A stretch of DNA of 45,271 nucleotides from Synergistaceae bacterium. GTDB lineage: Bacteria; Synergistota; Synergistia; Synergistales; Aminobacteriaceae. The stretch covers positions 1 to 45,271 of the forward strand of contig JAIRYN010000034.1 of assembly GCA_031267575.1 (NCBI GenBank). Reading direction: 5' to 3'. Positions 1,930 to 45,271 of the stretch are shown one piece after another. The translations under genes and the position numbers were made by a program. The notes under the pieces were generated by a model. It did not search any database. It was given only the letters and a program-made list of their open reading frames with translations, and was not told where the DNA came from. Every line of letters begins with the position of its first letter. Position 1 is the first letter of the stretch.

Positions 1930-2006
1930 CAAAAATCTTATGTTGTTACTTGGCAACATGCACCACTTTCAGGACCAATGGCTTATTATAAGCCTTCTCT
2001 ATCCCC

Positions 2007-9712: not shown

Positions 9713-10595
9713 ATAACGCCAACCTCGTCAAAAGATTTTTTTTATGGGTGAGTCCCGGATCCGGCAATAGGGTCTCTTGGCGGCTTCGCATCCCGATGGC
9801 TAAACCCGACTTCATGGACTCCGTCACCGCGTAGGCGGCCATGGACAATCCGCGCTCCACGTCGTCGGCGGGCAAGTTGTCTAAGTTGATAACCCATCCG
9901 CTCTGGGCGGTGGCGCTCTCGTAGATCCGGCTTTGCAGCTTTCCCGTGCGGGCGGAGGATTTCCAGTGGACGCGCTTGATGGGGTCGCCTTCCACGTAGG
10001 GACGAACCTCCACAATGTCCGTTTCTTCCGCGGCCGTGGCTGCGGCGCTTTCGCCTTCGTCATCTTGAGGGAGAATATGGACAAAAAGAAGCTCTAGGTC
10101 ACAGGGGAGAGGGTAGGGGAACACCGTCACCGCGGTCTTGAAGGCAACAGGCCAGTAGCGCACGAAAAAATTGAAAGGATAGACGGAGGACAGCTCCACG
10201 TTTTCGACTTTATGGGCTCCTCGGTAGGGGAAAGTGGTGAACAACGACCGGCTTTCGGTTTTCCCTGGCTGAACCACGGGGAAAAAAACGCGCTCTTTGC
10301 CCCCCGCCAGAGCCACCTCGATGAGGAAAAGGGGGACAAGACGGCTTTTATTAGAGACGTGCACGGTAACGGCACAGGGAACTTGGGCGTAGATCTCGTC
10401 GGGGAAAGATAAAGATACCGACGCGTTGCGGATGTTGCTTCGCCCGGCCAGGCCAGAGGCCAACATATACCCCAACATCACCGCCGTTCCCAGGTACAGC
10501 AGGTTGTTGCCGCTATTCACCGCCACGACCCCGACAATTATCGAGATGACGATGTAGATCATTCCCGCTCGGCGCGTCCGGACGACGCGTTTCAT
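9705..10595 (-). CDS. DUF58 domain protein, a MoxR-associated partner
   Basis: Two N-terminal TM helices and the motif VRPYVEGDPIKRVHWKSSARTGKLQSRIYE (DUF58 signature RxYxxGDxxRxIxW). Confidence 0.8.
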   Translation of the reverse strand: MKRVVRTRRAGMIYIVISIIVGVVAVNSGNNLLYLGTAVMLGYMLASGLAGRSNIRNASVSLSFPDEIYAQVPCAVTVHVSNKSRLVPLFLIEVALAGGKERVFFPVVQPGKTESRSLFTTFPYRGAHKVENVELSSVYPFNFFVRYWPVAFKTAVTVFPYPLPCDLELLFVHILPQDDEGESAAATAAEETDIVEVRPYVEGDPIKRVHWKSSARTGKLQSRIYESATAQSGWVINLDNLPADDVERGLSMAAYAVTESMKSGLAIGMRSRQETLLPDPGLTHKKNLLTRLALYV

Positions 10596-10617
10596 ACCTG
10601 GTCGCCTTTCGGCATTG

Positions 10618-10684
10618 TCTTCATTAATATTACCTTTATTAATATTGCCTTCATTAATATTACCTTCATTAAAAAATTGCCTTC
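10618..10684. repeat. Tandem repeat of about 16 bp with roughly 3.5 copies (ttcattaatattRcct) between moxR and the DUF58 gene
   Basis: Direct reading: cattaatattaccttt attaatattgccttc attaatattaccttc attaaaaaattgcc. Confidence 0.8.
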
Positions 10685-11627
10685 ATACGATGGTTGGTAC
10701 TTCCGAAAAAATCGCGCTCAGCACCTCGCGCTTAGTAGATCCCGATCCCTGGCGTAACTGTAAACGGTGGAGCAACACATCCTCCGCCATCACCTTTACG
10801 TCCTCAGGGATCACATAGTCTCGGTTCTGCATCCAAGCCAGAGTTTTGGCCAATTGCAGGAGCGACATGGCGCCCCGCGTGGAAATTCCGGCCGCAATAT
10901 TGGGAAAGACGCGGGTTTTTTCGGTTAGGGTCAGCATGTAGTCCAAAATCTTGTCGGAAACCATGACGCTGCGCTCAATGTCCGAGTGGATCCTCAGAAT
11001 TTCGTCAGGAGAAAACAAGGCCGAGATGTTTGAAAGTTTTTCTTTCTGGCTACCGGCTTTCAGTATTTCACGCTCGGCGGTTCTGGAGGGATAGCCAATG
11101 GAAACCTTCATCATGAAGCGGTCCATCTGGGACTCCGGAAGGGGAAAGGTTCCAGAGTGCTCCACGGGGTTTTGGGTGGCGACAATGAAAAAAGGCCGAG
11201 GTAACCGGTAGGTTTTTCCGTCGATTGTAACCTGCTCCTCCCCCATAGCCTCCAACAGGGCGCTCTGAGTTTTGGGTGTCGCGCGGTTGATTTCGTCCAC
11301 CAGTACCAAATTATTGAAAATGGGGCCGGGATGAAACTCAAATTCGCCCTTTTCCGCCTTGAAGATATTGAGTCCCGTGACATCCGTAGGTAAAAGGTCG
11401 TTCGTGCATTGGACACGACCGAAACGCAACCCTAGAGTTCGAGCCATGGCGATGGCCAAAGTTGTTTTGCCTAAACCGGGCAAGTCCTCCAATAAGAGGT
11501 GTCCATTTGAAAAAAAGCAGGCCATCATTTTTACTAAAACCCCGTCCTTGCCGTGCAACAAAGGCGAAAGATGCGCAAGCGCCTCCTTGATGCGAGGGTT
11601 GACCGCGAAAAAAGGAACATTAGACAT
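10683..11627 (-). CDS. MoxR-like AAA+ ATPase
   Basis: Walker A motif LLEDLPGLGKTTLA, a Walker B region, and a C-terminal MoxR lid. Sits in the classic MoxR-DUF58-transglutaminase gene order. Confidence 0.9.
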   Translation of the reverse strand: MSNVPFFAVNPRIKEALAHLSPLLHGKDGVLVKMMACFFSNGHLLLEDLPGLGKTTLAIAMARTLGLRFGRVQCTNDLLPTDVTGLNIFKAEKGEFEFHPGPIFNNLVLVDEINRATPKTQSALLEAMGEEQVTIDGKTYRLPRPFFIVATQNPVEHSGTFPLPESQMDRFMMKVSIGYPSRTAEREILKAGSQKEKLSNISALFSPDEILRIHSDIERSVMVSDKILDYMLTLTEKTRVFPNIAAGISTRGAMSLLQLAKTLAWMQNRDYVIPEDVKVMAEDVLLHRLQLRQGSGSTKREVLSAIFSEVPTIV

Positions 11628-11688
11628 ATTATACTCCTTTGTTGATTTCAGCTTGTACGCGCCTTTTCGGACTGGATTGAGTCAAGCC

Positions 11689-13104
11689 CTATACATTTAC
11701 CATCCCGCAAATGGCGCGCGCAGCGACGACTCCGCTGGCGGCGGCTTGAACAATACCACGACTGACCCCGGCTCCGTCTCCCGCCATCCAGAGCCCCTCT
11801 ATCGAAGGAACCGACAGGTTTTTGTTCAGCTCCAGGCGCAGCGAATAGAGCTTAATCTCCACGCCGTAGAGCAGTGTGTCGCCGTGATTGACGCCTGGCA
11901 TGATCTGGTTCAGGGCGTCAAGAAACTCCACGATGTCCATAACGTAGCGGTGTGGCAAAACGAGACTCAAGTCACCCGGCTGAGCCGAGACGGTGGGCTC
12001 CACCATCCCCCGATCGATGCGGGACTGAGTGGAACGCCGGCCACCCCGCAAGTCGGCCAGGCGCTGCACCAGGATAGCACCCCCCGCCAGCATGTTGGCC
12101 AGTTTCGCGATATGGGTGGCGTAGCCGATGGGGTCGCTGAAAGGCTGTGTGAAGTTCTTCGTGACCAGAATCGCGAAGTTCGTATTGCCGGATTTCTTGT
12201 TCTTCAGGCTGTGCCCGTTGACCGTCACCAGACGATGGGCCTGATTGAACTCGTGCACCACAAAGCCCGATGGGTTCATGCAAAAAGTGCGACATCGATC
12301 ATCGAAAGTGGGGGTGTTGTAAAGGCATTTGACCTCGTAAAACTCTTGGGTCAAGGATTCGCACACACTGTCAGGCACTTCCACGCGCACACCGATATCG
12401 ACGGGCATAGAGGCGATGGGCAACTCGAGCTTACCAATGAGGCTTTCGAGCCAAGGCGCGCCCTCCCGCCCTGGAGTCACCAAAACGTTTTCGCCACGCA
12501 CCTCCCGGTAGTCCTCGAACCGAACCCCCACGGTTCTTTCGCCGGAGGGGCCGCTTTTGGTCAGAATTTCCTTCACGGTGGACTCCATCTGGATATCACA
12601 CTTGGTAACTAGGTCCTTGTACATGTTGTTTAGGACCTCTCGGGACGCGTCCGTGCCGATGTGGCGAATGCGCGCGGGCAACACCCGTAGGCCCACTTGG
12701 GCGCCTCTGCGAATGGTGTCGTAAACCATCTCCGCCTTGGCCTCGTAGCAATGAGGGTCCGCGCCGAAGCGAACAAAAGCGTCGTCCACGTACTTGATCA
12801 TCGAAAGCAGCGCGGCCTGGCCAATGTACTCCTCCAAGTTTCCTCCGAATCCGGTGGTGAGAGTCAGCTTACCGTCCGAGGCCGAACCCGCACCCCCCCA
12901 TCCAGAAACCACGGCGCAGGAGTCGCAGTGAACGCAGCTCTTTACCAGGCCGTTAACCACAGGGCACCGGCGATCACTGATCAGTTTGCCTTTATCCGCG
13001 ATGAGGACCTTCTTGCCGTTGGCGATCAGCTCCGACGCGGCAAAGATCCCCGCGGGCCCGGCGCCGATAATGATGGCATCATAATGCGAGGTGGACATTT
13101 TCAT
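11689..13104 (-). CDS. FAD-dependent oxidoreductase (COG2509-like)
   Basis: N-terminal DAIIIGAGPAGIFAA Rossmann fold and a CPVVNG..C.HCDSC cysteine cluster. The plus-strand ORF 11359-12612 is antisense to this gene and is rejected. Confidence 0.7.
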   Translation of the reverse strand: MKMSTSHYDAIIIGAGPAGIFAASELIANGKKVLIADKGKLISDRRCPVVNGLVKSCVHCDSCAVVSGWGGAGSASDGKLTLTTGFGGNLEEYIGQAALLSMIKYVDDAFVRFGADPHCYEAKAEMVYDTIRRGAQVGLRVLPARIRHIGTDASREVLNNMYKDLVTKCDIQMESTVKEILTKSGPSGERTVGVRFEDYREVRGENVLVTPGREGAPWLESLIGKLELPIASMPVDIGVRVEVPDSVCESLTQEFYEVKCLYNTPTFDDRCRTFCMNPSGFVVHEFNQAHRLVTVNGHSLKNKKSGNTNFAILVTKNFTQPFSDPIGYATHIAKLANMLAGGAILVQRLADLRGGRRSTQSRIDRGMVEPTVSAQPGDLSLVLPHRYVMDIVEFLDALNQIMPGVNHGDTLLYGVEIKLYSLRLELNKNLSVPSIEGLWMAGDGAGVSRGIVQAAASGVVAARAICGMVNV

Positions 13105-13754
13105 TCCACCGAATTCCTGCCAGGGGGAAACTTGTCGGGGAAAAAGGCTTTGACCTCGTTCAAAAAATGATCCACCCGATGGGGTGTATGGATAAATTTG
13201 GGGTCAGAAAGGTCCAGTACCAGAAAATTCGGAATGTCCATCTCCGACTTGACAAAGTCGATAAAAGGAATATAAGCGGAGTACAGAGAACGCCAGTATT
13301 CCTCCCCGGCGTCCAGCTCGTCCCCTCGACCGCGCTCGCGGATGCGGCGCATGATTTCCTCAAAAGGGCAATAGACGAGGATCAACAACTGCGGAGCCTT
13401 GGTGTACTTAAGGAGGGAATCATAAAGGGTCAGGTAACATCCATATTGGCTGTCTTTGAAATAGCCCTGTTTGTAGTACAGCGTGGCGTAAACCTTGTCG
13501 CCGAAAATGCTGCGATCCATGATGTAGCAATTTTCCTCGGAGGCGCACAGGTACTGCGCGAAGCGCGTCACCAAAAAGTTGAGCTGCATAGGAAACGCCC
13601 AGTTTCGGTCGTGATGAAAGCGGCTCAATAGATCATACTGGTCGCGAAACTCCTCCGGCATGATCTTGAACCCCAGTCGTTCGCCTAAAAGATTGACGAT
13701 GGTCGACTTTCCGCTGGCGGTCATTCCCTCTACAATAATCTGAATCTGTCCCAT
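13101..13754 (-). CDS. Deoxynucleoside kinase (dAK/dGK/dCK family)
   Basis: P-loop IVEGMTASGKST, a DRS motif (YIMDRSIFGD), and the typical 217-aa size. Overlaps the upstream gene by 4 nt. Confidence 0.8.
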   Translation of the reverse strand: MGQIQIIVEGMTASGKSTIVNLLGERLGFKIMPEEFRDQYDLLSRFHHDRNWAFPMQLNFLVTRFAQYLCASEENCYIMDRSIFGDKVYATLYYKQGYFKDSQYGCYLTLYDSLLKYTKAPQLLILVYCPFEEIMRRIRERGRGDELDAGEEYWRSLYSAYIPFIDFVKSEMDIPNFLVLDLSDPKFIHTPHRVDHFLNEVKAFFPDKFPPGRNSVE

Positions 13755-26500: not shown

Positions 26501-27260
26501 TGAAGGGCGCCGTCAGTTTACCCGCGAAAAAAGCTCGCCCCGTCGTCCCCACTGACACATCTATGGAAAGGGCCTCGAGAGACTCGAAGGCCAATGTTCC
26601 GCGAAGTCGTACAGGGAGACCTCCCAGGTCGGCGGAAAGCATAATGGAGCCATCTTGAGTCAGGAAGCCCTCCTCCACGCCCACGGCGGCGAAAGGGGTA
26701 TCGAAAGTGATGTCGTGTAACAGAACCTGGATCGGACGGATTGAACTTGACCCCTCGCTTTTCTCTCCTCCGTAGTGAGCGGCCAAAGTTGAAAGATCCT
26801 CCACCTTCGCCTTCACTCCGTCGATTTCCAGGTCCGAAAGCCAAAGCGCTCCCTGCAGCAGGTCTTTCCAAGAGGGGCGCAGCATAATACGCCTGGCACT
26901 CAATAAGGAGGTGTCTCCCGAAATCAGTTCGACGCCATTCAATGTAAGCCCGGAATACAAAGACCCGTCCACTTTCGCTACCCTCAGGATGGGAACGATA
27001 TTTTCACCGTAACGGTGTACTAAAGGCTCGACCAAAAGGGGGCCAATCGGGCCCCAAACAGCCCCAATCAGGCAAAAGAAAAAGACTCCTGAGAAGGCAA
27101 TACAGGTCCACCACAACGTTTTTTGCAAGAACCTCAAAAATTCCAACCTCGATTCTCTGGCTCTCTCATATAGAGCAAAGTTTACAACAACAACATCACA
27201 TACAACCGTACTTAGAAAGCATCGGCGCTTGTTTGATCTCAGAATGGCTCGATTATACAA
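23586..27260 (-). CDS. TamB/AsmA-like translocation and assembly module protein of 1224 aa
   Basis: N-terminal signal-anchor TM, a very long beta-rich Gly/Val/Leu-repetitive body, and a DUF490-like C-terminal region. The C-terminal coding sequence contains nucleotide tandem repeats (23525-23640). Confidence 0.5.
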   Translation of the reverse strand: MYNRAILRSNKRRCFLSTVVCDVVVVNFALYERARESRLEFLRFLQKTLWWTCIAFSGVFFFCLIGAVWGPIGPLLVEPLVHRYGENIVPILRVAKVDGSLYSGLTLNGVELISGDTSLLSARRIMLRPSWKDLLQGALWLSDLEIDGVKAKVEDLSTLAAHYGGEKSEGSSSIRPIQVLLHDITFDTPFAAVGVEEGFLTQDGSIMLSADLGGLPVRLRGTLAFESLEALSIDVSVGTTGRAFFAGKLTAPFKVKGSLQSVKLNELLAVFSQVEGRGEIDGQIDVMGAGENLGAWGTLRLKDGQVAGFPVEASVPWRYKAGDFSVSQAKLESGAGDIELKVSADLRPNPVTDRFFARGSVRNASMKKLERLLSPGVSLEGEGGMVDFWTSADQGGAVAGKVFMRLPELKVEGKEVVKGLRANLVLSPNWNLAVDCTGEVFGGKVFGAGEVLRSASNALWHSTLKFTLKEMKSNLVATAFPALAPLDLSGTLDADAHIVSLGNDLAVRGEARSQAFTLFGRRFDALSASMRYEKGTVVLEDLKARIDKALLDFSGAADLTTSELRFAGNLKGFNPQSIPELSQVEGLCDVTLEVQGTLTSPRVMVTLISNENKVAGVPLRHVKLSGTYENNKVYLPETTLQVPGGSLSFRGDVDLSKNGEPYLNLSGALTNLDLESIAQDWDMDVTGKVEGTLKVSGAVSNAALSATLRSNAIMVASTDVRDLYLDVTGTTRNVRVRSVKAKINEGALEGNGNLTFGRRGRLQIGMKVKGIEIRSLLAQFGLDGGVGGYLDGFLSLRGSPLRPELALEVTSPLTIQETLVDHLMLTIISPARGKFDMDASGRLGDLALTLKGHMERNKEGWGYAAESSILDLDQLVSAKMPSLKGQFAGNVKARVTGRMNGRRNRGPAVANVMLTLPVFSVAGVELRDIFLPIRVSEGRASVREGTGVAYGGKIDINADVNMPDQQWKATAKISGLNIGQAAHPFMAQGAIVGSADVNVQLKGNYGPLMMVFANGDFRSSEGYIHEFDILKNITKDGRISFEEIRGSFFWDGNDLWLNPGTQATAKPGAPLYKYFSINGPLGLLGKDLALICKGRFDVQALNTVLGALKGVLQFMTGSLAGNGQLLRQAVSKLVGYSERDFQDVTFQLKGSWKELQLLNLTIDKSIEEYLPLRNDTTTQRKESERKIRFNLRIPTGPGGGDDDLDAQEQFKKQLLDNLLNQLDL

Positions 27261-27487
27261 GATTTACGAGCGAAAGCATAAAAAGATTACTGAAAGGTCG
27301 CTAGTGGATAAGTGGATAAGTGGATAAGTGGATAGTGTGGACGACCTTCAAATTCCAAAAAACCAAGAGGCGAAAACCCTTTCTCGTCTTGGACGATAAG
27401 GATTTTATTTTCCGCGTAATCGCGACGTTATAGAGACATATGATCGCGCGTCTCTACAAAGCGTGACGCTCGTGTTAAAATTTCAAA

Positions 27488-27949
27488 ATGCTTGTTAAAA
27501 ATAAGACGATCACTTTTGTTTTGGCATTGACAGCAGATATCGCCACAAAATATTGGGCCTTGTCCGTTCTTGCCGTGGCGAGTGAGAAAATGACGTTTTC
27601 TACTCTGCTTTCTTTGAGGTTGCGTTTCAATCAAGGGATTTCTTTTTCTTTGCTGGTTCGGCATCCCCGGGGCGCGTGGCTGGTGGCTGTTGTCAGTGTC
27701 GTTTTTTTGGGAATGTTGTGCGTGAAAAATGCGACGGTCCGTTCCTCCTCTGGTATGTCCTTTGGTATGTTCTTTGGTATGTCCTTGTTGTGGGCTGGGG
27801 GTTTAGGGAATTTGGCCGATCGTGTCTTTTATGGATATGTTGTGGATTAGATTTACATGGGCATATTCGTGAACTTGGCCGATTTTTGGCTATGCTTGGG
27901 TTCTGTTTTATTGTTAAAGCATTGTTGGAATAGACGCCTCGACTCTTGA
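27488..27949 (+). pseudogene. lspA: Lipoprotein signal peptidase II interrupted by an in-frame TAG at 27848-27850
   Basis: ADIATKY (catalytic Asp region) and GNLADRVFYGYVVD, then TAG, then IYMGIFVNLADFWLCLGSVLLL containing the second catalytic FNxAD motif. The two halves are collinear and in the same frame. Confidence 0.75.
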
Positions 27950-27999
27950 GTGACATACGGTAAAATAAATGTCGAAAACTTGATTGGGGAGGGATTTAA

Positions 28000-29202
28000 A
28001 TGAGGGTTGCCGTAGGGTGGATTCTTTTTTCATGGTTGTTGACGGCGAGCGTCGCTGATTCGGCTTCGTCTGAGACGGCGCCGTCCATGGTGAAGCCTTT
28101 GGCGACGACGAACGCACCAGTGGTTTCCATTGAATTACCGGCGTCCTTGGCGTCCTCTTGGGAGAGACTTTCCTCGACCCTAACGGACGCCTTGAACCTC
28201 CAGGACAAACAGGAGACCTTGCCGGAATCCTCCTACTTCGGCGCGGACAAAATCAGCAACACGAAAAAAATCAACGCGCTTTTGGACAAGGTCGTCGAGA
28301 TTTTGGTTCAGGGCGACGCTAGCGATCTGCGTAGGCAGGCGATTGCGTTACGTGAGACAGGGCTGCCCGCTTTGCGCCGAGAAGTGGATGACCTCCGTAA
28401 CAAGCGTATTTCCGCTCCAGAGACCTCCAAAGTGCCCTGGGTCAAAACGCGCTCCCAAATAGAAGCGCGCATCGCGGAGCTGGATGTGGAGATCAAAGAG
28501 AAAGAGCGGCTTGCGATGGATATCGACAGCAAGATCGCCGAAGCGTTGAGAAACATGGGCCTCGATTTGGACGACAAACAAATCGACATCCTGCTGACCT
28601 CCGTCACTGGTGACGATCTTTTTCAAAACACGGTGGTCTTCGCGAATGTCAAACACGTGGTGGAAAAGCTCGCGGAGCTTTCTCGGGAAGACCGGGACAA
28701 CTTGGAGATCAGCCGGCGTTATATCGGTATGTACCTGGTGTTGAACGACGTTTTGATTGCCACTCAAGAGGGACTGATCGAGAAAATCAATATGGACTAC
28801 AAACCACGATTGGCCGAGTTGAAGGCCGAGGCCGAAAAACTTCGCGCGGAAGCCTTAGGACGCGCAAAACAAGGACAGTACTCGAAGACCCAAAAAGAGG
28901 CATTTGAGGTCAACGCCAAGGCCAACGCCATGACGGCGCGAGTGGCAGAGCTTTACGCGGAGCTCCTAGAAGGACAACGCAAAAATTTCAAGGTGACCTT
29001 GATGGACCTGCAACGCAACCGCGACGTGGCGGAGAGTACCTACAAGACTGTCCGGAGTACGGGCGACCTGAGAAACCTAATCCGCGCGGGGCTCGATTTG
29101 TTTGACTCCATCCATCCTCTTTCCATGCCTCAGCTTCAATCTTTTGAAAACGAGGCCATCCGCAAGGAGTTCGAAGAAATCAACAAACGTCTGAGAAAAT
29201 GA
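28000..29202 (+). CDS. Secreted coiled-coil protein of 400 aa, function unknown (possibly TelA-like)
   Basis: Signal peptide MRVAVGWILFSWLLTASVADSA, then long heptad-rich Glu/Lys/Ala/Leu segments. The TelA resemblance is weak. Confidence 0.55.
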   Translation: MRVAVGWILFSWLLTASVADSASSETAPSMVKPLATTNAPVVSIELPASLASSWERLSSTLTDALNLQDKQETLPESSYFGADKISNTKKINALLDKVVEILVQGDASDLRRQAIALRETGLPALRREVDDLRNKRISAPETSKVPWVKTRSQIEARIAELDVEIKEKERLAMDIDSKIAEALRNMGLDLDDKQIDILLTSVTGDDLFQNTVVFANVKHVVEKLAELSREDRDNLEISRRYIGMYLVLNDVLIATQEGLIEKINMDYKPRLAELKAEAEKLRAEALGRAKQGQYSKTQKEAFEVNAKANAMTARVAELYAELLEGQRKNFKVTLMDLQRNRDVAESTYKTVRSTGDLRNLIRAGLDLFDSIHPLSMPQLQSFENEAIRKEFEEINKRLRK

Positions 29203-29229
29203 AAATACGCTATCTTTCGTTAAGAGATC

Positions 29230-29263
29230 TGTAATTATTATTAGAGGTCGCTGTATTATACAG
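29230..29263 (+). terminator. Hairpin terminator candidate after the coiled-coil gene
   Basis: Near-perfect palindrome ttagaggtcgctgta-tta-tacagcgacctctaa with an AT-rich flank and no clean T-run. Confidence 0.4.
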
Positions 29264-29675
29264 CGACCTCTAATGCCGGTGGACAGCCGGCTCACAACAC
29301 AGGGAGGTGTTGCGAAATTATATTAACACGCATTTTATATAAGGTATACTATAATAAATCTTAGGATATGACGTAAAAATTGCTTAAAAATATTATAATG
29401 AAGCTATAATTAAAATAAAATAAATAAGAATGATATTTGAAACAGTATTAAAACTTACTTTGTTTTACATCTATCCGTGTCGCTATGTCGGTTGTTTGTT
29501 TTTGAGTAAATATTTTATCGTTTTGAAGCGAAAGATATCCCTGACGCTGACGGCGGATCCCTTCTATATGTTTTATGCGCATGCTTTATGCGCATGCTTT
29601 ATGCGCGATGTGTAAATGAAGTTAGTGGTCGCCTTGTTTTTGTCCCTGGTATTCCCTCTCTGAAGTTTTTATTTT

Positions 29676-29989
29676 TACGATAAAGCGATCCTCATCCAAC
29701 AGCTGAAGCCGTTGGATGAGGATCGCAACACCACCGTTGGCGGTGTTTGTTTTGTATTTGGTTTCTTGCCATATGTCTACTTTCATGTTAAACTCCTTTT
29801 ATGGCTTATCAACGTGAGATGCGGGGCGGAACACGACCAGGATATTAATGCGGTTGTAAATATTCTAAGAGTGGGAGCATCCACTCTTAGTGGGGGCATC
29901 CACTCTTAAAGGAAAAGACGTAAGACCGGTTTCAGTCGGCTGTTTTTGTCGATCTTATAATCCCATGACTTTAGTCGTGGGAGTATGTC
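29676..29989 (+). repeat. Copy B of the promoter-leader repeat cassette, oriented toward cobQ
   Basis: Inverted relative to copy A at about 90% identity. Contains a 19-bp internal tandem duplication (29869-29906) and the conserved hairpin cccatgac-ttta-gtcgtggg at 29962-29981. Confidence 0.85.
29766..29794 (+). promoter_or_regulatory. Sigma70-like promoter within copy B, likely driving cobQ
   Basis: TTGCCA, 17-nt spacer, TAAACT. It is preceded by a hairpin plus T-run (29727-29768) that overlaps the -35 element. Confidence 0.5.
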
Positions 29990-30022
29990 AAGTAAGGAGT
30001 TTGTGCGTAAGGAGTTTGTGCG

Positions 30023-37316: not shown

Positions 37317-37379
37317 ATCATTGATCCTCTTTTCATTGATCCTCTTTATTATATATTGATTATATATTGATTATATCAG

Positions 37380-37892
37380 TTATCTTTTGATCGCAAGAAC
37401 ACGGGGAGCAGCTATCAAAAACCAGACCGCGAACTCCTCCGGCGTTTTTCGCAGACGAGATGACAATTCGCCGAACTCGATCCACTTGGTCTCCATAATC
37501 TCATCCTCGTTCGCGCTCAATGCGCCGGAGTAGTCGGCAGCGAACACGTGATCGTACTCATGTTCATACAGGCAATCGTTGAACTTGTGCTCGTACACGA
37601 AGGAAAACAGCTCGACGGGCTTTATACCACGAACGCCGATCTCCTGCTCCAATCGACGAACCACGGCGAGTTCTGTCGACTCGTCCTCTCTTGGGTGAGA
37701 ACAACAGGCGTTGGCCCACAGGCCGCCAGAGTGGTATTTGCCCATCGCCCTTTGCTGTACCAGCATATATCCGTTATGATGAATAAACACCGAAAAAGCG
37801 CGATGTAGCTTCGGAGTCCTGTGAGCCTCCATTTTCTCCGCCGAGCCGATGGGCCGGTCAAACTCATCGACCAAAATAATTCTCTCCGTCAT
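37380..37892 (-). CDS. idi: Isopentenyl-diphosphate delta-isomerase, type 1 (Nudix)
   Basis: [38 protein letters not shown] closely matches the E. coli Idi core. Start overlaps the cysNC stop. Confidence 0.85.
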
Positions 37893-39817
37893 GCCCCTTC
37901 ACCCTCTAGAAAATGCACAATTCTCTCCGCCTCTTCTTCCGCGTTGCCGCTCCCGTTCACGACGAGTTCGGGATGTTCCGGGCGTTCGTATGGCGCGTTG
38001 ATGCCGGTAAAATTGGGAATCTCCCCGATTCTCGCTTTTTTGTAAAGACCTTTCGGGTCGCGCTGTTCGCAGGCTTCCAGCGACGTATCGACGAACACCT
38101 CGATAAATTCTCCGGGAGCGAACAGGGAGCGCGCGTATTCCCTGTCTTTTTGGAAAGGTGAGATAAACGCCACCAACACGATAAGGCCAGCGTCAATCAT
38201 CAATTTCGCCACTTCGGCCACGCGGCGGATGTTCTCCACCCTGTCTTCCTCGGTGAAGCCCAGGTCTTTGTTGAGCCCGTGCCTCACATTGTCGCCGTCC
38301 AGCACACAAGAACGCAATCCCATCGAAAAGAGCTTTTTGTCAACCAGATTCGCCACCGTCGATTTGCCGGAACCTGAAAGCCCCGTGAACCAAAGCACGC
38401 GAGGGGTTTGCCCCATCAGACGTGCTCTAGCCTCTTTCGTGATCTCGAACAAGTGCCATGTCACGTTTGCGGCCCTCCGCAAGGAATATCGAATCATTCC
38501 CGCGCCAACCGTGTCATTCGTGACGCGATCAATAAGGATGAAACCACCTAATTCCCTGTTTTCCGTGTAAGGTTCGTACACAATCGGTGTTCCGGTTTTG
38601 ATGTTGCCTATTCCGATTTCGTTCATAGCGAGGGTTTTGGCCGGTTCTATCGACAATGTTTCGACGCTTGTCTTGCCGCGTATTTCCGTCACGGTGGCCA
38701 ACACCGTCCGGTTCGATATCTTCAAAAGGTATTCGCGTCCGGGGAACAACCTGTTTTCGCTCATCCAGACTACGACCGCGCGGAAATGGTCCGTAACATC
38801 TGAAACAACCCGCGCGTCCGATAAAAAGTTGCCGCGGCTTATGTCCGTTTCTTTCGTAAGAGATATCTCCGCAGCTTCACCCTTTTTAGCCGCGTTTCGT
38901 TCTTTGCCGCTCACGATAAGCGACTTAACCGTATTTTTTTGACCCGACGGCAGAACGACAACATCGTCGCCCGTGCGTATCGTGCCCTCCGCGATTATGC
39001 CGCAGTAACCCCTAAAGCTCGCGCCGGGCCGGTTGACCCACTGAACCGCCATCCTAAATGGTTTTACCTTTTCTTTTAGCTTTTCTTTTAGCTTTTCTTT
39101 TTCGCCGCCCGGTTCGAGGGTTTCCAAATACTCCGCCAGCGTCGGACCACTGTACCACGGCGTATCGTCCTTACGCGCGAAAACGTTGTTCCCTTTTAGG
39201 GCAGAAAGCGGAATACAGGTCACGAAGAGTTCTCCCGTGTCGTGTTCCAGTTTTTTAATTTTTACCATTAAGCTCTCGTAGTCCTTCGATATTTCGTCGA
39301 AAATATCCCTCGACCATCCGACCAAATCCATCTTGTTCACCGCGAGCGCGATGTGGCGAATACCTAACAATACCGCGATGTACGTGTGCCTCACGGTCTG
39401 CGGCAAGATGCCGTTGCGCGCGTCAAGTAGAACAACGGCGGCCTCGCTGTTTGAAGCGCCGGTCACCATGTTTCTCGTGTACTGTTCGTGTCCCGGCACG
39501 TCTGCCACGATGAACTTCCTGTTTTTCGTTTCGAAATACCTATACGCCACGTCTATGTCTATGGTTATCCCCTGCTCACGTTCCGCCAAAAAGCCCTCCA
39601 TAAGAAGCGAGAAATCCAGTTCGCCGTCCATGTTTTTCTTCCAGCTTTCGCGGTGGAGGGAAGAGAGTTGATCATCAAAGAGACAGCCCGAATCATAAAG
39701 CAGCCTTCCTATCAGCGTGCTCTTTCCATCATCGACGCTACCGCAGGTTAAAAATTTCAGTTGCGTTTTATTTTCATGTGTTTTCTTTTTAGATTCGGAA
39801 AATGGCATTTTTAAAAA
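37889..39817 (-). CDS. cysNC: Bifunctional sulfate adenylyltransferase subunit 1 / adenylylsulfate kinase
   Basis: GTPase domain [16 protein letters not shown]...DVPGHEQY...NKMD, with a C-terminal APS kinase ([14 protein letters not shown]...). Start at MPFSESKKK (39817); the ORF track extends to 40054 through the cysD remnant. Contains an in-frame [10 protein letters not shown] repeat. Confidence 0.85.
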
Positions 39818-40560
39818 TACCCCTCCTGTTTTTTCTTCTCCATGGAACCGTCCTGGTCGTTGTCGATTAACCGGCCATGACGCTCCGAAAAACGCAATTG
39901 CCGTAACTCGTTGAAGACGTCCCGCGCGATAGCGGCGTTCGATTCGACAGCTCCTGTGAGCGGGTAGCAGCCCAGAGTCCTGAAATACACCATCCGAAAC
40001 TCCGGCCGTTCGTCCGGAACAAGTTTCATCCTGTCGTCGTCGATCATAATCCACGTGCCCTTGCGTTTCACTACCGGGCGCACGCTGGCGAAATAGAGCG
40101 GAACTATCGGAATATCTTCATCGACGATGTACTCCCACACATCATACTCCGTCCAGTTGGAGAGCGGGAACACACGCATGGTCTCCCCTGGCCCGAGGCG
40201 AGTAAGGGATTTATGCCTTCTTTGACGGCCTTTTCGTTCGTATAAGTGATCAGGCGCAACCCCAGTGTCTTTTCACTGTGGCGTCCCTGAAAGCGATCAT
40301 CTCTTTGAATTTCCACTCTTTGAATTTCCACGTCGTGTCTATATGCATAAGAGGCAACGGCGGCTTCGGTGGGTAAAAAGTCTTTATGGTGAGGCGAAGC
40401 ATGACCGACGAACCCTTATCTATGGATTGACTTACCGTTCTGCCCAACTTATGCAAACCTGAATAAATCCGATCAAATATGATCAGGAGCAAGTTTACTG
40501 TTGGCTTCCTGCTTCATCGAGGCCAGTTTCACCATCATCTCGCGACGACATAAAAACCGC
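39811..40560 (-). pseudogene. cysD: Sulfate adenylyltransferase subunit 2 (cysD), degraded by frameshifts and an internal deletion
   Basis: Three collinear fragments in different frames match CysD: [35 protein letters not shown].., then [17 protein letters not shown], then [18 protein letters not shown]...[14 protein letters not shown]...[12 protein letters not shown]. About 85 central residues, including the GGxRRDEE region, are missing. A 15-bp in-frame tandem duplication lies at 40300-40329. Confidence 0.8.
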
Positions 40561-40660
40561 AACATGAAGAAAACCCCTTATTAATTTATAATGATGATAA
40601 GCAATGAATGCCCGGAGGAACGTCATCCCCAATGTTTGGGTCTGCCCATGTTTTTGCTCG

Positions 40661-41389
40661 TTAATGAAAAGCTAAATCTCGCAGATCCGAGTACAATTTT
40701 TGGATATCGTCGGGCAGAACGTCCTCGCCAGAGTCAGGAAAGCGCGCCGACGCGGGTTCGTTCCAAAAAGAGGCAATATTGCGCCGCAGTGTTTCCAGAT
40801 CGATAGGTCGTCCGAGCCAGTTCAGTAGCTTGGCGAACGAATCAAGGGGTTCAAGGCAGAAGCGGTTGAAGTCGAAAATAAACGCGTCCATCCCCTCGGA
40901 GTTTTCGATAAAGCGTCGACTGTATTTGCCCCAGATACATAGGCCCTCGTCAAAATCCGTTCCGTAGCGCTTGCTCATTGAAGCCGCGACCTCGGCGGGA
41001 TGCCGTAAACAGAAAACCACCCGGCGAAGTTCCAGCCACACGTCCCGCCACGCCGCCAAAGTTAGGCAGAAGAGCGGGTCTTTGCAAAGTTCTCCGTCGA
41101 ACTCTTTCAAAAAGATCTGAAAATATTTTTGCCTTTTGGTGGCGAGCGCCATGATCTCGTCGCGCGGAGGTGGTGTAAAGATTCCCCAAAAAGGGCTGAT
41201 CTCGATTAGAAGCCGTTCGTTGACCGCGAAAAGCAAGTCGTGTTCAAAATGCCCCCTGGGGTTCATGGGCGTCGAGTTGCGCAGAACGCGGATATTGCGC
41301 CCCAGATCGAAACCGCAGAGCTCCAACAGGCCCGTGACGCAGCTTGTGCCGCTTCTCATCGGACCGGTAACGATGGTTGTTTCCCTCAT
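40661..41389 (-). CDS. Sulfotransferase family protein
   Basis: VTGPMRSGTS is the 5'-PSB (PAPS-binding) loop of sulfotransferases, on a roughly 240-aa scaffold. The start ATG overlaps the TGA of the upstream gene (ATGA). Confidence 0.7.
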   Translation of the reverse strand: MRETTIVTGPMRSGTSCVTGLLELCGFDLGRNIRVLRNSTPMNPRGHFEHDLLFAVNERLLIEISPFWGIFTPPPRDEIMALATKRQKYFQIFLKEFDGELCKDPLFCLTLAAWRDVWLELRRVVFCLRHPAEVAASMSKRYGTDFDEGLCIWGKYSRRFIENSEGMDAFIFDFNRFCLEPLDSFAKLLNWLGRPIDLETLRRNIASFWNEPASARFPDSGEDVLPDDIQKLYSDLRDLAFH

Positions 41390-43680
41390 GATTTTGCCTT
41401 TCCGTCCATAAGCGCAAGTGTCGCCCACGCGGAGCTCACGCCGCCCAGGTCCCGTGTGAAAAACAAAGTTCGCTCCCCGTCCTCCTCGAACCAGTAAGCG
41501 AGAATGGGCTCGCCTGCCCAGCCACCCGGCCCCTTGATTCTTCGCAGCCAGTCCCGACCCGGGTCAAGAGAGGAGGAGGAAGGCGACGCGACGGTCAGCG
41601 CCAGCAACGCGGCGGAAGTTTCGATGACGGAACCGCCCCACGCTCCCTCGTTTCCCTGGCCGCTTTGCAAGCGATAGACGGCCCGCGCCTCGACCTCCTT
41701 CAGAAGCTGGGAATCGTAGGGGGAACCTTCGAGGGAGGTAAAGAAACGCAGCGCGTACCAAATGGGGATTGTTTGTGAGGGAAACCACTTTCCGGGCCAT
41801 CCACCGCTCACTTGCTGGTTTCGCAGCAGATAATCGCGGCAGAGAGTAATTTCCTCCGCATAACGTTCAGGATCTATCCGCGTCAGCAACCATGCACAGA
41901 AGGCCGTTGCTGGGCAGTCCACGCCCCGCCAATAAGGCGCGCGCCCAGGCGCGTCGGCGGGAAGCGTGCCGAATCCCCCTTGTTCACGGTCAAAAAACAC
42001 GTCGACGAGCCTACGGCAACTTTCCCGCAAACACGTTCTATGCCTGCCGGTCGACAGCAAACCCTCCATAACGAGGGCACTATCCAAAGATGTAACGCCA
42101 TAATCCCTCTGATAGCCCCATAAACCGTCGACGGCCTCTTCCAGCAGATAACGCTCGGTTTCCCACGATTCTCCTTCGAGGAAAGACGTCTCGCCCTTTC
42201 CGGCCTTTTCTGCTTGAAGCAGAAGGCCATAATAAGCCACTGTACCATCGCGGAAAGTTTCGGTGAGTTGAGGGCCATTGCCGCCCATGCGGAGAACCGT
42301 GGTCTCGGCTAGAGGCATACGGCCAAAATCCACCGAAATCGGGCCGAAATCGTCTTTCAGGCAAAAAGCCGCCGCCCTGCGACCCGACGCTATCGCGGGC
42401 CACATGCCGTAAGGCAGCGCCGCGCCGTCCCACTCTGTATAATCCCCGGCCAAGACGACTCCTGGCATGGGACAAAGCCATGTCGCGGAAAAACCGCGAT
42501 AAGTCGACTCCTCGATAATGGGGCCGACTTCCGCCCAGCGCCGCGATTCCAGCAGAGAACAGTTCTTGACGGTAAATTCACCGACACTTGTCGCTTGCAG
42601 TTCCTCAATCATCATCCGCGTCAAATCCGCGTCGCTCATGCCTTCAGATGCCGCCATGCTTTCGCCCACAATGTAGCCTGTGACGACGACTTCGTTTTCG
42701 TTAGAAACGCCAGAAACGCCTGGAAGCTGATGGAAAATAAAGGTGTTGAAATGGCCCTGAGTGGAAACCAGATAGGACAATGCGCGCCGATTTTCGACAC
42801 GACAGTGGAGAACGACGGCGATTCCTCCACCGTAGCGGACGCGGCCGAGAAAATCGGAGGAGACGTTTTTGAATTCACTACATAATTTTTTAGCCTCAGT
42901 CGCTGGGACTGCTAGGATAATCTTTTGCGCGACGGCTTCTTCTTTCGCGCCGTTTCCGTTACGCCACAGAACTTTAACGGACTTGGAGCTTTGCCCTCCC
43001 ACCGAAAGACCTCGCTCAAGAGCCTCGGATTCTTGAGAATCTTTTTTGGGGACTAACTCGTACACGCGGCAAGCCGTTCGGATTTCTGCCCCGCCGCTCG
43101 CGGCTGTTAGGTTTGCGGCCATAGCCTGAATCATCGCTCCGTTTCCTCGCTGGAAATAATCTGCCCTGTGACGGAGGAGACAATCCCTGCGGCGGGTCGG
43201 AACAGCCTCGGTGGGTGTTCCGGGGTGGATGACGCGAAAGAAAGCCTTCATCGCCGCCCCCAGGTCTTCACCGATCATCGCCTCCTGTGGATTCGGCGAG
43301 GCGAGGAAAGACGATAGGCAGATCTGTTGCCGCGGCGCCGAGTTCAGCGAGCGAACGCAATCGACCACCGAGTCGCCGGTATGGAGCCGTCCCCGGTGAA
43401 ACAAACCCACGGGATTATCGTTCTCGTAGTGAGAACCCGCGTCCACGGGAAAGTCAAACCATTTGGGATTGAAAGCGAAAATCGACCCCGTTTCGTAAAC
43501 GATTCTATCCCGTTTCCCCGTGCGCACTTTACCGCCCAAACGGCCATCCGCTTCCAAGAGCAAAACTTTTTTTCTGGGTTTTCCCGTTTTCACGTTCAAA
43601 GAAACTTCGCAGGCGGCGGACAAACCCGCCAATCCGCCTCCCACGATGATCACGTCGTACTGCTCGTATTGTCGCGTCAT
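41386..43680 (-). CDS. Fusion protein: flavin-containing amine-oxidase/desaturase-like N-terminal domain plus squalene-cyclase/prenyltransferase-like repeat C-terminal domain
   Basis: N-terminus YDVIIVGGGLAGLSAA...LLEADGRLGGKV...GVVLAGDYT (amine oxidase FAD fold). C-terminus carries QW-type repeats QQVSGGWPGKW, QSGQGNEGAWGGS and KGPGGWAGEP, typical of terpene cyclase/prenyltransferase alpha-barrels. GGAGGTGA RBS before the ATG at 43680. Confidence 0.65.
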   Translation of the reverse strand: MTRQYEQYDVIIVGGGLAGLSAACEVSLNVKTGKPRKKVLLLEADGRLGGKVRTGKRDRIVYETGSIFAFNPKWFDFPVDAGSHYENDNPVGLFHRGRLHTGDSVVDCVRSLNSAPRQQICLSSFLASPNPQEAMIGEDLGAAMKAFFRVIHPGTPTEAVPTRRRDCLLRHRADYFQRGNGAMIQAMAANLTAASGGAEIRTACRVYELVPKKDSQESEALERGLSVGGQSSKSVKVLWRNGNGAKEEAVAQKIILAVPATEAKKLCSEFKNVSSDFLGRVRYGGGIAVVLHCRVENRRALSYLVSTQGHFNTFIFHQLPGVSGVSNENEVVVTGYIVGESMAASEGMSDADLTRMMIEELQATSVGEFTVKNCSLLESRRWAEVGPIIEESTYRGFSATWLCPMPGVVLAGDYTEWDGAALPYGMWPAIASGRRAAAFCLKDDFGPISVDFGRMPLAETTVLRMGGNGPQLTETFRDGTVAYYGLLLQAEKAGKGETSFLEGESWETERYLLEEAVDGLWGYQRDYGVTSLDSALVMEGLLSTGRHRTCLRESCRRLVDVFFDREQGGFGTLPADAPGRAPYWRGVDCPATAFCAWLLTRIDPERYAEEITLCRDYLLRNQQVSGGWPGKWFPSQTIPIWYALRFFTSLEGSPYDSQLLKEVEARAVYRLQSGQGNEGAWGGSVIETSAALLALTVASPSSSSLDPGRDWLRRIKGPGGWAGEPILAYWFEEDGERTLFFTRDLGGVSSAWATLALMDGKAKS

Positions 43681-43696
43681 GTCTCCGTCACCTCCG

Positions 43697-44902
43697 TCAT
43701 TGAATATTCCACGCTTGCCTCGCTTGCTTATCGGCGTCGGGTGACACACCCAGAATCGCGTTCCGCGGATTGAACAAGCTCAAAGCTAGACCAGGGCGGC
43801 TAACGGCGAGGTAAGCCTTTGCTTGCGTCAAAGTCCCCCGCGACAACGTGAGCTTCAGGTGGTGAATTTTCCTATAGGTATTGAGATAAACGACGCCGCC
43901 GGTGATGCGCTTGCGCAGAGGTGACGCAGTGATCCCGACGTAATCCTTCACGCCCTGCGCCTTTTCAGGCAAGCAGAGTCCCGCGCGCGTCAGTGCCTCA
44001 AGCAGCGGATGCCATTGCTTAGGGTCATCATCGAGCCATTCCTCGTAACACTCTACGCCAAAGACGTCGTCAACGCCTTCTTCCATCAGGTTGAAGCCGA
44101 AATTCAGATCACGGCAGAGCGGGAAAACGACTTCGAAGATCTTCCTCAACGATTCGATTTCGGCGGCGCCGGCCTCGGCCGTTCTAGTAGCGGACCGTAG
44201 TCTTGCGAGCCAAGTCAGAATTTTCCCTATGTCCATTCCTGCCTTCGACACGACTTTATCCACGCACAGCCTCATTCCAACGTCGTCCGCCCGGTCCAGC
44301 ATGAAACCAATCTGAAAAATCCTCGCTCCCTCAGGCAGGTCGTCGAAAAATTTTCGTAGCGCGCGCGCCTGGGAAGCGGGACGCTCGAACAGGGACATGA
44401 GCTCCCCGATCAGATCAAAGGTTCTCTCGTTGGACGTTTTCGGTTCGGGGCCGAAGAAAATATTGGGTTGCCGCAAAACCCTTTCCGCGTCCGCTCCAGC
44501 CAAATCCATTTCCAGCCAAAGGTTGTGGATATCGCGGTTCCATGGGTGGTCGAGATTGAGCCAATTCCGGGCGAGAACTCGAAGATTTTTCCAGACAGGA
44601 TAGACCTCGCACAGTTCGTCGATGGCAGAAGAGATTTCACCAGCAAGAAGAGCAGGACCGCAAGCCTCCTTCTTGATTTCAAACAAGATGTCGGAAAGGG
44701 GCTCCGGTTCGCCGAGACGGCACTCGAAACCCCAGAAGCTGGACAACTGTATCGGAAGGCGCGCGGCGACGCAGCGCATTTGCGCCCGGCATTCCTCTCC
44801 GAACAGACTTTCCGGCAGGGACGGCTCAATGTCATCCAAGACGTCGGTCAACGAAGGGACCGACGTCATAGCGGGCGCAACACGATTCGCGGGGCAATTC
44901 AT
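43697..44902 (-). CDS. Hypothetical protein of 401 aa with no recognisable family signature
   Basis: Long ORF in the operon between the precursor gene and the fusion enzyme. Acidic clusters FFDDLPEG and VDDVFGVECYEE are the only motif-like features. Confidence 0.55.
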   Translation of the reverse strand: MNCPANRVAPAMTSVPSLTDVLDDIEPSLPESLFGEECRAQMRCVAARLPIQLSSFWGFECRLGEPEPLSDILFEIKKEACGPALLAGEISSAIDELCEVYPVWKNLRVLARNWLNLDHPWNRDIHNLWLEMDLAGADAERVLRQPNIFFGPEPKTSNERTFDLIGELMSLFERPASQARALRKFFDDLPEGARIFQIGFMLDRADDVGMRLCVDKVVSKAGMDIGKILTWLARLRSATRTAEAGAAEIESLRKIFEVVFPLCRDLNFGFNLMEEGVDDVFGVECYEEWLDDDPKQWHPLLEALTRAGLCLPEKAQGVKDYVGITASPLRKRITGGVVYLNTYRKIHHLKLTLSRGTLTQAKAYLAVSRPGLALSLFNPRNAILGVSPDADKQARQAWNIQ

Positions 44903-44993
44903 TCATAAAGCCCTCATTTTAATATACGTGATGGACTTCTGAGCCCCTCACCATCTTGGACTAGAGAAAATCCCACTTTCTTTGTTTCCGTTT

Positions 44994-45271
44994 TTACCAA
45001 CGAGAGAGAGCCTTACCAATGGATATAATCACTGCTCCCCCGACGGCGGCACCAACGACAAGGGCAGCGGTCGATGTAACGATGCCACCCGCCACTTTTT
45101 CTAGTTCTTCTTCACTTAATTCGTCTTTCTTGTCCACTCCTACTTCCTTTGTCAGAGCTTCCGCGTCTTCTTTGGAGAACTCCAGGCCCAACGTTTTCGC
45201 ATAGGTAATCTGACCGTCTAGATCTCCTATGCCGATTTCTTTCGCCTTTTTGCGGACTTCCTCATTCTCTA
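44994..45271 (-). CDS. Nif11-like leader precursor peptide with a double-glycine site (N-terminus beyond window end)
   Basis: The ORF is open to the window edge. Leader: ...EEVRKKAKEIGIGDLDGQITYAKTLGLEFSKEDAEALTKEVGVDKKDELSEEELEKVAGG. Core: IVTSTAALVVGAAVGGAVIISIGKALSRW, then stop. The leader end LSEEELEKVAGG resembles the LSDDELEGVAGG of prochlorosin-type Nif11 leaders. Confidence 0.65.
   Translation of the reverse strand, partial: ENEEVRKKAKEIGIGDLDGQITYAKTLGLEFSKEDAEALTKEVGVDKKDELSEEELEKVAGGIVTSTAALVVGAAVGGAVIISIGKALSRW

Follow-up and report, generated by a model that had tools for sequence, protein, structure and literature searches.

What is made by the genes at the end of contig JAIRYN010000034.1, a stretch of 45,271 nucleotides from a Synergistaceae bacterium (assembly GCA_031267575.1; the window, below), in which the precursor gene of a ribosomal peptide stands beside genes of isoprenoid and sulfate metabolism? 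Seven genes, all called on the minus strand, span positions 37380-45271. They form a real and widely conserved cluster. With a probability of roughly 70%, these positions hold the 3' portion of an operon, proteusin-type, for a ribosomally synthesised and post-translationally modified peptide (RiPP) that would receive an isoprenoid on its final Trp, which would then be reshaped and sulfated. A preliminary description, made from the letters of the window, had counted eight genes, the number obtained when the two fragments of cysD are counted apart, and its same-strand packing was found again. As product it had proposed either an isoprenoid-modified, sulfated RiPP with Trp prenylation or a sulfated terpenoid; the former largely stands as the best-supported chemistry, with the roles of the enzymes reassigned, and the latter does not. 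In the order of transcription, the features are as follows.

44994..45271, minus strand: precursor peptide gene, its 5' end lost at the contig end (~15 codons missing)
43697..44869, minus strand: predicted MppC-family peptide prenyltransferase with an ABBA (PT-barrel) fold, 390 aa or, from an alternative start at 44902, 401 aa
42298..43680, minus strand: N-terminal flavin adenine dinucleotide (FAD)-dependent oxidoreductase domain (aa 1-461) of a 764-aa fusion protein, amine-oxidase/CrtI/PPOX superfamily
41386..42297, minus strand: C-terminal monodomain class II terpene cyclase-like domain (aa 462-764) of the same fusion
40661..41389, minus strand: predicted 3'-phosphoadenosine 5'-phosphosulfate (PAPS)-dependent sulfotransferase, 242 aa
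39811..40492, minus strand: cysD pseudogene (sulfate adenylyltransferase subunit 2), fragments 40250-40492 and 39811-40179
37889..39808, minus strand: cysNC (sulfate adenylyltransferase subunit 1 / adenosine 5'-phosphosulfate (APS) kinase), 639 aa, apparently intact
37380..37892, minus strand: idi (type 1 isopentenyl-diphosphate isomerase), its ATG overlapping the cysNC stop

The stop codon of the fusion and the start of the sulfotransferase overlap as ATGA, and so do the cysNC stop and the idi start, the two junctions already noticed in the preliminary description; the remaining gaps measure 124 nt between precursor and prenyltransferase (91 nt from the alternative start), then 16, 168 and 2 nt.

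As for whether these genes belong together, 30 related loci (numbered L001 onwards) were collected and mapped by blastp and tblastn. One or more precursors, the prenyltransferase, the fusion and the sulfotransferase were found together in Synergistaceae, Desulfobulbaceae, Anaerolineales, Leptospirales, Candidatus Moduliflexus and several unbinned contigs; some 15 loci, independent of each other and drawn from 5 phyla or more, show this co-occurrence, and the arrangement is therefore not a product of chance. The search of homologous genomes for the same neighbourhood, suggested earlier as a check, thus returned genes that co-occur widely. In 24 loci, including every informative one from Synergistaceae, the prenyltransferase or the precursors adjoin a ~495-aa radical S-adenosylmethionine (SAM) protein with the motif CSVGCWFC, a PoyD-type epimerase by its TIGR04517 scores (345-388 bits against a cut-off of 325), and it is because of this enzyme that the cluster family is assigned to the proteusin type. 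It is absent from the window, which is a complete metagenome contig and stops within the precursor gene. In L001, from Synergistaceae, the epimerase gene comes first, then four precursors, the prenyltransferase, the fusion and the sulfotransferase, and by analogy the epimerase and further precursors of the window organism probably lie just past position 45271. Relatives from Desulfobulbaceae add a C39-peptidase ATP-binding cassette (ABC) exporter, a second ABC protein, a beta-lactamase-fold protein and DUF7005; the C39/ABC exporter and the extra precursor copies that had been expected beyond the contig end are thus carried by relatives. More distant ones add B12-radical SAM enzymes, YcaO and UPF0489/2-oxoglutarate (2OG) proteins.

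Three loci (L013, L014 and L016; Clostridiales, Desulfohalobiaceae, Catenovulum) are without the fusion and the 242-aa sulfotransferase and have instead a 623-689-aa protein with a C-terminal Sulfotransfer_4/3 domain; by sequence, then, the pairing of prenyltransferase and sulfotransferase is one that recurs in two non-homologous forms. An exact look-up of the 401-aa ORF gave no match, a scan of metagenome contigs for close relatives found none, and an alignment-based scan found relatives of at most 42% identity only. Finally, residues 37-94 at the N-terminus of the PoyD-type epimerase of L016 (8326-9915) score 29.1 bits with TIGR03798, below the cut-off of 32.3, and this epimerase may carry a leader-like domain.

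Regarding the precursor, translation gives a Nif11-type leader (45084-45269) with ELSEEELEKVAGG at its C-terminal end, directly followed, after the GG cleavage site, by a 29-aa core (44997-45083) that reads IVTSTAALVVGAAVGGAVIISIGKALSRW, and by a stop codon at 44994-44996; the core is Cys-free and hydrophobic, with Trp as its last residue, exactly as the preliminary description had it. The truncated window precursor scores 27.4 bits with TIGR03798, below the cut-off of 32.3, because the gene lacks the codons for ~15 N-terminal residues; full-length orthologous precursors from L001, L003, L013 and L015 score above it (35.4-62.5 bits). An acidic L(X)4L stretch and the double-Gly site (ELSEEELEKVAGG) precede the core, features shared with MppE, the precursor of the mpp cluster treated below. 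Bacteriocin_IIc and TIGR03949 matches cover the GG site and the core, the latter model (class IIb bacteriocin, lactobin A/cerein 7B) at 27.8 bits against 21.5; yet the leader is of the long Nif11 type and the gene stands among modification enzymes.

Of 45 related precursor ORFs (open reading frames) from 11 loci, counted without removal of duplicates, about 40 have Trp as their last residue. The leaders of the various loci close with ELSE(E/D)(D/E)L(E/K)KVAGG, and the cores are Gly/Ala/Val-rich, start with x-x-T-x-T, contain no Tyr and usually have their final Trp in a K/R-x-W, PGW or GGW context. The precursor array of L010 (28-1469) also holds degenerate copies, truncated or without the terminal Trp (…SSSGSSNLE, …ARAEKWGD, REGTNKWGIPYV).

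The second gene, called an unknown 401-aa protein in the preliminary description, is by sequence and modelled fold a prenyltransferase of the ABBA fold and the MppC family. The protein, in its 390- or 401-aa form, has no match in Pfam or NCBIfam; an AlphaFold2 (AF2) model, built with 29 homologues, has a mean confidence (pLDDT) of 89.9 and a predicted template modelling score (pTM) of 0.89, and its ten strands in alpha-beta-beta-alpha repeats form a PT-barrel. The 50 best matches listed by Foldseek against the PDB are all ABBA aromatic prenyltransferases, with TM-scores of ~0.5, led by bacterial 5- and 6-dimethylallyltryptophan synthases (DMATS; E ~2e-6). Among characterised enzymes, MppC is the closest in sequence, with 26% identity over 386 columns (BLASTP, E 2e-24); it is a leader-dependent ABBA prenyltransferase that in vitro transfers a geranyl group to indole C5 of Trp82 in MppE and does not use free Trp (PMC12715784). 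The locus that encodes it, L019 (Moorena producens PAL, CP017599.1 189120-211270), was reached via a homologue of the fusion, and MppC was recognised there by W336 and F340 in a 390-aa protein and by the adjoining MppE, a Nif11-leader peptide with the core ACWRWSG and the residues W80/W82. A 354-aa ORF of L019, upstream of the fusion homologue, was considered as MppC and rejected for lack of similarity; MppC is the 390-aa ORF on the other strand.

The homology to MppC and the near-invariant final Trp of the precursors indicate that the window prenyltransferase probably modifies the C-terminal Trp. Prenyltransferase activity, which had been placed in the QW-repeat domain, thus moves to the 401-aa protein, and the QW domain is read as a class II cyclase. 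The family is large, with 4425 representatives at 50% identity in a profile search at E<=1e-3 and 2067 at E<=1e-30, and includes fusions to 2OG oxygenases, a methyltransferase, LanM and a cyclase, with many of the fused members having an oxygenase, methyltransferase or LanM partner in place of a cyclase; the 622-aa fusion P0245, tried as a prenyltransferase-cyclase fusion, was discarded since its C-terminal domain is not cyclase-like.

In the 764-aa fusion, the N-terminal domain matches Amino_oxidase (2.4e-17) and NAD_binding_8 (1.4e-9) in Pfam. Its likeness to named families (HpnE, PPOX, PigB) and to PDB structures is confined to the dinucleotide-binding region and lies far under the cut-offs; the fusion scores 38.2 bits against 283 for HpnE and 19.9 against 640 for CrtID. 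The C-terminal domain is a single squalene-hopene cyclase (SHC)-like domain of ~300 aa with two QW motifs (QQVSGGW and QGNEGAW), weakly matched by SQHop_cyclase_C (3.5e-4). A profile of this domain made from 14 sequences and run against the PDB retrieved 8pak_A, a 361-aa cyclase (E 3.9e-22), SHC (~5e-18), 8paj (4e-14) and MstE (5.5e-5), together with other class II cyclases; 8pak and 8paj are monodomain cyclases. The one invariant Asp, D533 (nt 42082-42084), lies within W.Y..GYGVTSLDSALV.EGL, and its motif (T-S-L-D-S-A-L-V) aligns within one residue to DADSTA of 8pak. Further comparison comes from P0337, a 750-aa protein with a prenyltransferase of the MppC-like family at its N-terminus: its C-terminal domain is homologous to the window cyclase domain (hhalign probability 90%, E 1.7e-6), keeps the Asp and shares the motif VTS.DSAL. 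From its sequence, the QW-repeat domain is accordingly classed as a class II terpene cyclase-type domain; the preliminary description's fusion of an amine-oxidase-like with a QW-repeat domain holds in its oxidase-like and cyclase parts, and its prenyltransferase reading of the latter is dropped.

The two domains can also occur apart. In L012 (Leptospirales), the FAD part (406 aa) and the cyclase part are separate adjoining genes at 11125-13275, on the strand opposite to the idi-bearing part. The fusion homologue of L019 has 30% identity to the window protein and lies two genes from MppC; it translationally overlaps the 354-aa protein, which is similar to the N-terminal portion of the ~630-aa proteins with a sulfotransferase domain in L013, L014 and L016. 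L019 also has a Trp halogenase and DUF7005.

As for the 242-aa protein, the preliminary assignment to PAPS-dependent sulfotransferases is supported by fold, motifs and family-level matches, and on the model and the sequence it is such an enzyme. The window protein itself has no Pfam match; among its homologues, Sulfotransfer_3 (PF13469) is found in 26 of 32 and Sulfotransfer_1 in 7. The AF2 model (pLDDT 93) retrieves PAPS sulfotransferases as all of its top 18 Foldseek matches in the PDB, among them Stf9, CurM-ST, OLS-ST, Stf1, TPST1/2 and Teg12. Among the residues invariant in all 32 sequences are R12-S13-G14, S16, R129 and S137 (R-x7-S), with T15 conserved in at least 90%; in the light of SULT structures, we take R12-S13-G14...S16 to be a loop like the 5'-phosphosulfate-binding one and R129...S137 to be like the 3'-phosphate-binding motif.

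Of the supply genes, cysNC scores 869.7 bits with NF004035 (cut-off 715) and is 77% identical over its full length to its L001 orthologue, and idi scores 154.1 bits with NF002995 (cut-off 127), both by hidden Markov model (HMM); the attachment of PAPS and Idi supply genes to the cluster, proposed earlier, is supported. Downstream of the sulfotransferase come, in L001, a sulfate ABC transporter, an intact cysD and cysNC, and, in L007, cysD; in L012 idi lies inside the cluster (1764-2327), between DUF7005 and a B12-radical SAM gene. The window cysD, already noticed as degraded, is a pseudogene: relative to the intact 299-aa orthologue of L001 (tblastn), residues ~101-169 (~70 codons) are deleted and there are two frameshifts, PAPS_reduct matches in Pfam only as fragments, and Tandem Repeats Finder (TRF) reports a perfect 15-bp tandem duplication at 40301-40331.

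Other short repeats occur nearby. A perfect 12-bp repeat in 3.3 copies at 39062-39101 inside cysN is an insertion relative to L001, and the spacer between idi and a solute-binding protein (SBP) gene (37318-37376) has perfect repeats of 15 bp (2 copies) and 11 bp (2.6 copies); taken together, the duplications in cysD, cysN and the spacer suggest local slippage or assembly artefacts. A 46-kb Synergistaceae contig (L020) was considered as a further cluster locus and set aside, as its sulfotransferase is away from any prenyltransferase or precursor.

From these parts the following pathway can be proposed. Its substrate would be the Nif11-leader precursor, with the VAGG cleavage site and the hydrophobic Gly/Ala/Val-rich core ending in Trp. 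A PoyD-type radical SAM epimerase, encoded upstream of the prenyltransferase in relatives and here probably beyond the contig end, may act on it, and the 390-aa ABBA prenyltransferase would put an isoprenoid on the C-terminal Trp, one that must be C10 or longer to give the cyclase a substrate. The class II cyclase domain would then cyclise this chain by protonation, probably via Asp533, and the FAD domain may add a coupled redox or isomerisation reaction; this tailoring by the fusion is the weakest step of the scheme. The host taxa are anaerobes, for which reason an O2-dependent epoxidase role of the flavin domain is unlikely, and a CrtI-type desaturation, a saturation or an isomerisation is more plausible than epoxidation. 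The sulfotransferase would move sulfate from PAPS to a hydroxyl on the cyclised isoprenoid or to a conserved Thr/Ser at core positions 3-5, and the sulfate may be kept or used as a leaving group. The translationally coupled cysNC and idi would supply PAPS and dimethylallyl diphosphate (DMAPP), with idi balancing the isoprenoid supply; because cysD is broken, sulfation in this strain would need APS from elsewhere or be impaired. Finally, a C39-peptidase ABC exporter, as found in relatives, would cut after GG and export the product, presumably a membrane-active lipopeptide. It is possible, and put forward here tentatively, that the products form a RiPP subclass of their own, namely D-amino-acid-containing membrane-spanning peptides whose C-terminal Trp bears a cyclised (sterol- or hopanoid-like) isoprenoid, tailored by a flavoenzyme without O2 and then O-sulfated, or else handled with sulfate as leaving group.

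Several points weigh against this pathway and against the assignment as a whole. For any protein of the clade, function is assigned by homology, and MppC is only 26% identical and modifies an internal Trp in a lanthionine ring, not a C-terminal one. The FAD domain resembles characterised enzymes in its dinucleotide-binding part only, so that its reaction is a guess; the cyclase domain lacks the canonical DxDD motif and has the single invariant Asp in its place. No polyprenyl diphosphate synthase was found in the window or in the annotated relatives, and a C5 donor would leave the cyclase little to act on. The linkage of idi to the cluster is seen in two loci only. The epimerase, the exporter and the further precursors are all outside the window. 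As for sulfate activation, an intact set of CysD, CysN and CysC is not present, with cysNC intact and cysD a pseudogene, which hints at decay in this lineage; so does L020, where an 81%-identical orphan sulfotransferase (10001-10705) lies beside a DDE transposase fragment.

Such decay, with the cluster partly non-functional in the window organism and the peptide perhaps still prenylated while sulfation, and perhaps more, has been lost, is rather unlikely. Beside the damaged cysD and the orphan sulfotransferase, the short perfect tandem duplications found repeatedly in cysD, cysN and the idi-SBP spacer speak for it, as do the degenerate L010 precursor copies without terminal Trp. On the other side, the prenyltransferase, the fusion, the sulfotransferase, cysNC and idi all have intact ORFs, which show 66-77% identity to orthologues along their whole length and remain translationally coupled; moreover, APS could come from another ATP sulfurylase in the genome, and frameshifts in a metagenome assembly may be errors. 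A different view of the sulfotransferase, itself unlikely, is that sulfation is transient: the enzyme would turn a hydroxyl, either on Thr/Ser of the conserved x-x-T-x-T stretch that opens the core or on a terpenoid, into a leaving group. Its elimination or ionisation would give a dehydroamino acid or an olefin or carbocation, and the mature product would be sulfate-free. CurM and olefin synthase sulfotransferase domains, like retinol dehydratase, use sulfate in this manner, and the best structural matches of the 242-aa protein include the CurM and Synechococcus olefin synthase domains (E 7.6e-6 and 1.6e-5), with retinol dehydratase lower down; equally good matches, however, are Stf, TPST and Teg12, whose products are stable sulfate esters. 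In clusters with the 242-aa sulfotransferase, core position 3 is strongly conserved as Thr and position 5 as Thr/Ser, and in three cores from L013 and L014, which are without it, position 5 is not Thr; but this correlation amounts to three peptides from two loci, which carry another sulfotransferase-domain protein, and no lyase or thioesterase-like partner is evident.

Very improbable, instead, is that the enzymes make a free sulfated terpenoid or indole-terpenoid, or belong to hopanoid or carotenoid primary metabolism, with the peptide gene an unrelated, unmodified class IIb-like bacteriocin. The core does exceed the TIGR03949 cut-off (27.8 against 21.5 bits), idi lies in the operon, the N-terminal part of the fusion has weak HpnE, PPOX and CrtI-like matches and its C-terminal domain is SHC-like, and the nearest structural relatives of the prenyltransferase are DMATS enzymes that act on free Trp. 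Against this, the HMM check on a hopanoid or carotenoid assignment gave no equivalog-level match to HpnE, CrtI or SHC (38 bits against 283 for HpnE), the cyclase is a single domain of 300 aa and not a 630-aa SHC, and no squalene, phytoene or polyprenyl synthase was found in the window. In every informative locus, across phyla, the three enzymes stand beside Nif11 precursors and a RiPP epimerase, and MppC needs the leader and rejects free Trp (PMC12715784). The sulfated terpenoid of the preliminary description is thus rejected on account of family scores far under the cut-offs, the lack of a synthase in the window and the constant linkage to precursors and epimerase, and the outcomes that it had named as speaking against its proposal did not appear: the genes co-occur widely, and HpnE stays at 38 bits against 283.

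How far the proposed prenylated and sulfated proteusin is new depends on its comparison with known systems. The nearest is the mpp cluster of M. producens PAL (Wakeel, McShan & Agarwal, JACS 2025; PMC12715784), whose product is called cryptic and in which no role is reported for the fusion homologue. It has in common with the window cluster the family of the prenyltransferase, a precursor whose Nif11-type leader shows both L(X)4L and VAGG, a Trp acceptor and the fusion homologue (30% identity), and with the relatives also DUF7005. It differs in being a class II lanthipeptide system with LanM, a Trp halogenase and a 7-aa Cys-containing core whose internal Trp is geranylated at C5, and in having neither the 242-aa sulfotransferase nor a PoyD epimerase; the window core has 29 aa and is Cys-free and linear with a C-terminal Trp, and its relatives come with PoyD epimerase, sulfotransferase and PAPS genes.

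RiPPs with a prenylated and cyclised isoprenoid on Trp, Nif11 and proteusin types included, were described in 2024-2025, according to PMC12715784 and PMC13290415. In NctPC, as summarised in the latter (citing Hubrich et al., Chem 2024), an ABBA-fold prenyltransferase domain geranylgeranylates Trp and an MstE-like monodomain class II cyclase cyclises the chain. As far as these summaries go, NctPC and ChrPC resemble the window system in prenylating a Trp of a ribosomal peptide and then cyclising the isoprenoid with an MstE-like monodomain cyclase, and P0337, with its C-terminal domain homologous to the window cyclase domain, has the architecture so described for NctPC. In the same summaries their cyclase is fused to the prenyltransferase, whereas in the window cluster the prenyltransferase is a protein of its own and the fusion partner of the cyclase is an FAD oxidoreductase; the citing texts mention no sulfotransferase or PAPS supply for them. 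The hosts here are anaerobes and not cyanobacteria.

With proteusins of the polytheonamide type, the window precursor shares the Nif11-type leader and the long Gly/Ala/Val/Thr-rich hydrophobic core, and its relatives the adjoining TIGR04517 epimerase (24 loci) and, in several cases, B12-radical SAM enzymes; known proteusins are not described as sulfated, and a literature search for a sulfated proteusin or Nif11 RiPP gave no match. ComX had been named as a reference point for Trp prenylation. PalQ prenylates a C-terminal Trp and favours G-W or GGW ends (PMC10853753, PMC13290415), and several relatives of the window precursor end in PGW or GGW. PalQ and ComQ-ComX are unlike the present system in the fold of the enzyme, which is that of a trans-isoprenyl diphosphate synthase (trans-IDS-like) and not the ABBA barrel, in their short leaders and in having no cyclase or sulfotransferase; no trans-IDS-like prenyltransferase gene was found in the window or in the annotated relatives, and the ComX parallel is therefore abandoned in favour of the ABBA fold. 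As for sulfation, RaxX is a sulfated RiPP, free of prenylation, whose sulfotransferase RaxST acts on Tyr and comes with its own ATP sulfurylase/APS kinase genes (RaxPQ). The pairing of a sulfotransferase with PAPS synthesis genes is common to both systems; the Tyr target is not, as the cores here have no Tyr.

The claim of an undescribed cluster type thus holds in part: the general kind has been known since 2024-2025, and the cluster is better seen as a variant, itself uncharacterised, within a peptide family that entered the literature in those years than as a wholly new kind of system. A literature search for a RiPP combining a terpene cyclase and a sulfotransferase returned nothing relevant. 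Likewise, no description of the FAD-oxidoreductase/cyclase fusion, of the sulfotransferase with PAPS and sulfate supply, or of hosts among Synergistaceae and other anaerobes was found in the searchable literature, with the proviso that Hubrich et al. 2024 may catalogue them.

The rest of the window is of a housekeeping nature, with cobalamin genes, GGDEF proteins, an H+-PPase, MurJ and an AsmA-like protein. Past the end of idi, the gene of an SBP_bac_3 transporter was considered as a cluster member, as it recalls the SBP_bac_3/SDF genes that follow the sulfotransferase in Desulfobulbaceae, and was rejected because there is no detectable homology. Promoter and terminator scans performed no better than on shuffled sequence, and an Rfam scan gave no match. 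G+C content is low at 27000-30000 and 1000-3000 (0.38-0.44 against ~0.53 elsewhere in the window), and the ORFs at 28000-29202 (400 aa), 1234-1929, 84-614 and 9705-10595 have no Pfam match.

In conclusion, lipidated and terpenoid-decorated ribosomal peptides were discovered in 2024-2025 and are attractive for engineering, and this cluster and its ~15 relatives would extend their chemistry in three directions of which no description was found: a flavoenzyme fused to a terpene cyclase domain, a dedicated sulfotransferase that has its own PAPS and sulfate supply, and hosts that are strict anaerobes of gut and sediment (Synergistaceae, Desulfobulbaceae, Anaerolineales) in place of cyanobacteria. 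The analysis also proposes a function for the large family of the prenyltransferase, which counts 4425 representatives at 50% identity and for which neither Pfam nor NCBIfam has a model, and suggests a role for the uncharacterised fusion gene of the cryptic mpp cluster. If the tentative subclass outlined above is real, its product would be a ribosomally templated "terpenoid sulfate" lipopeptide or, should sulfate act as a leaving group, its sulfotransferase would be a new trigger of dehydration or cyclisation in RiPP biosynthesis.

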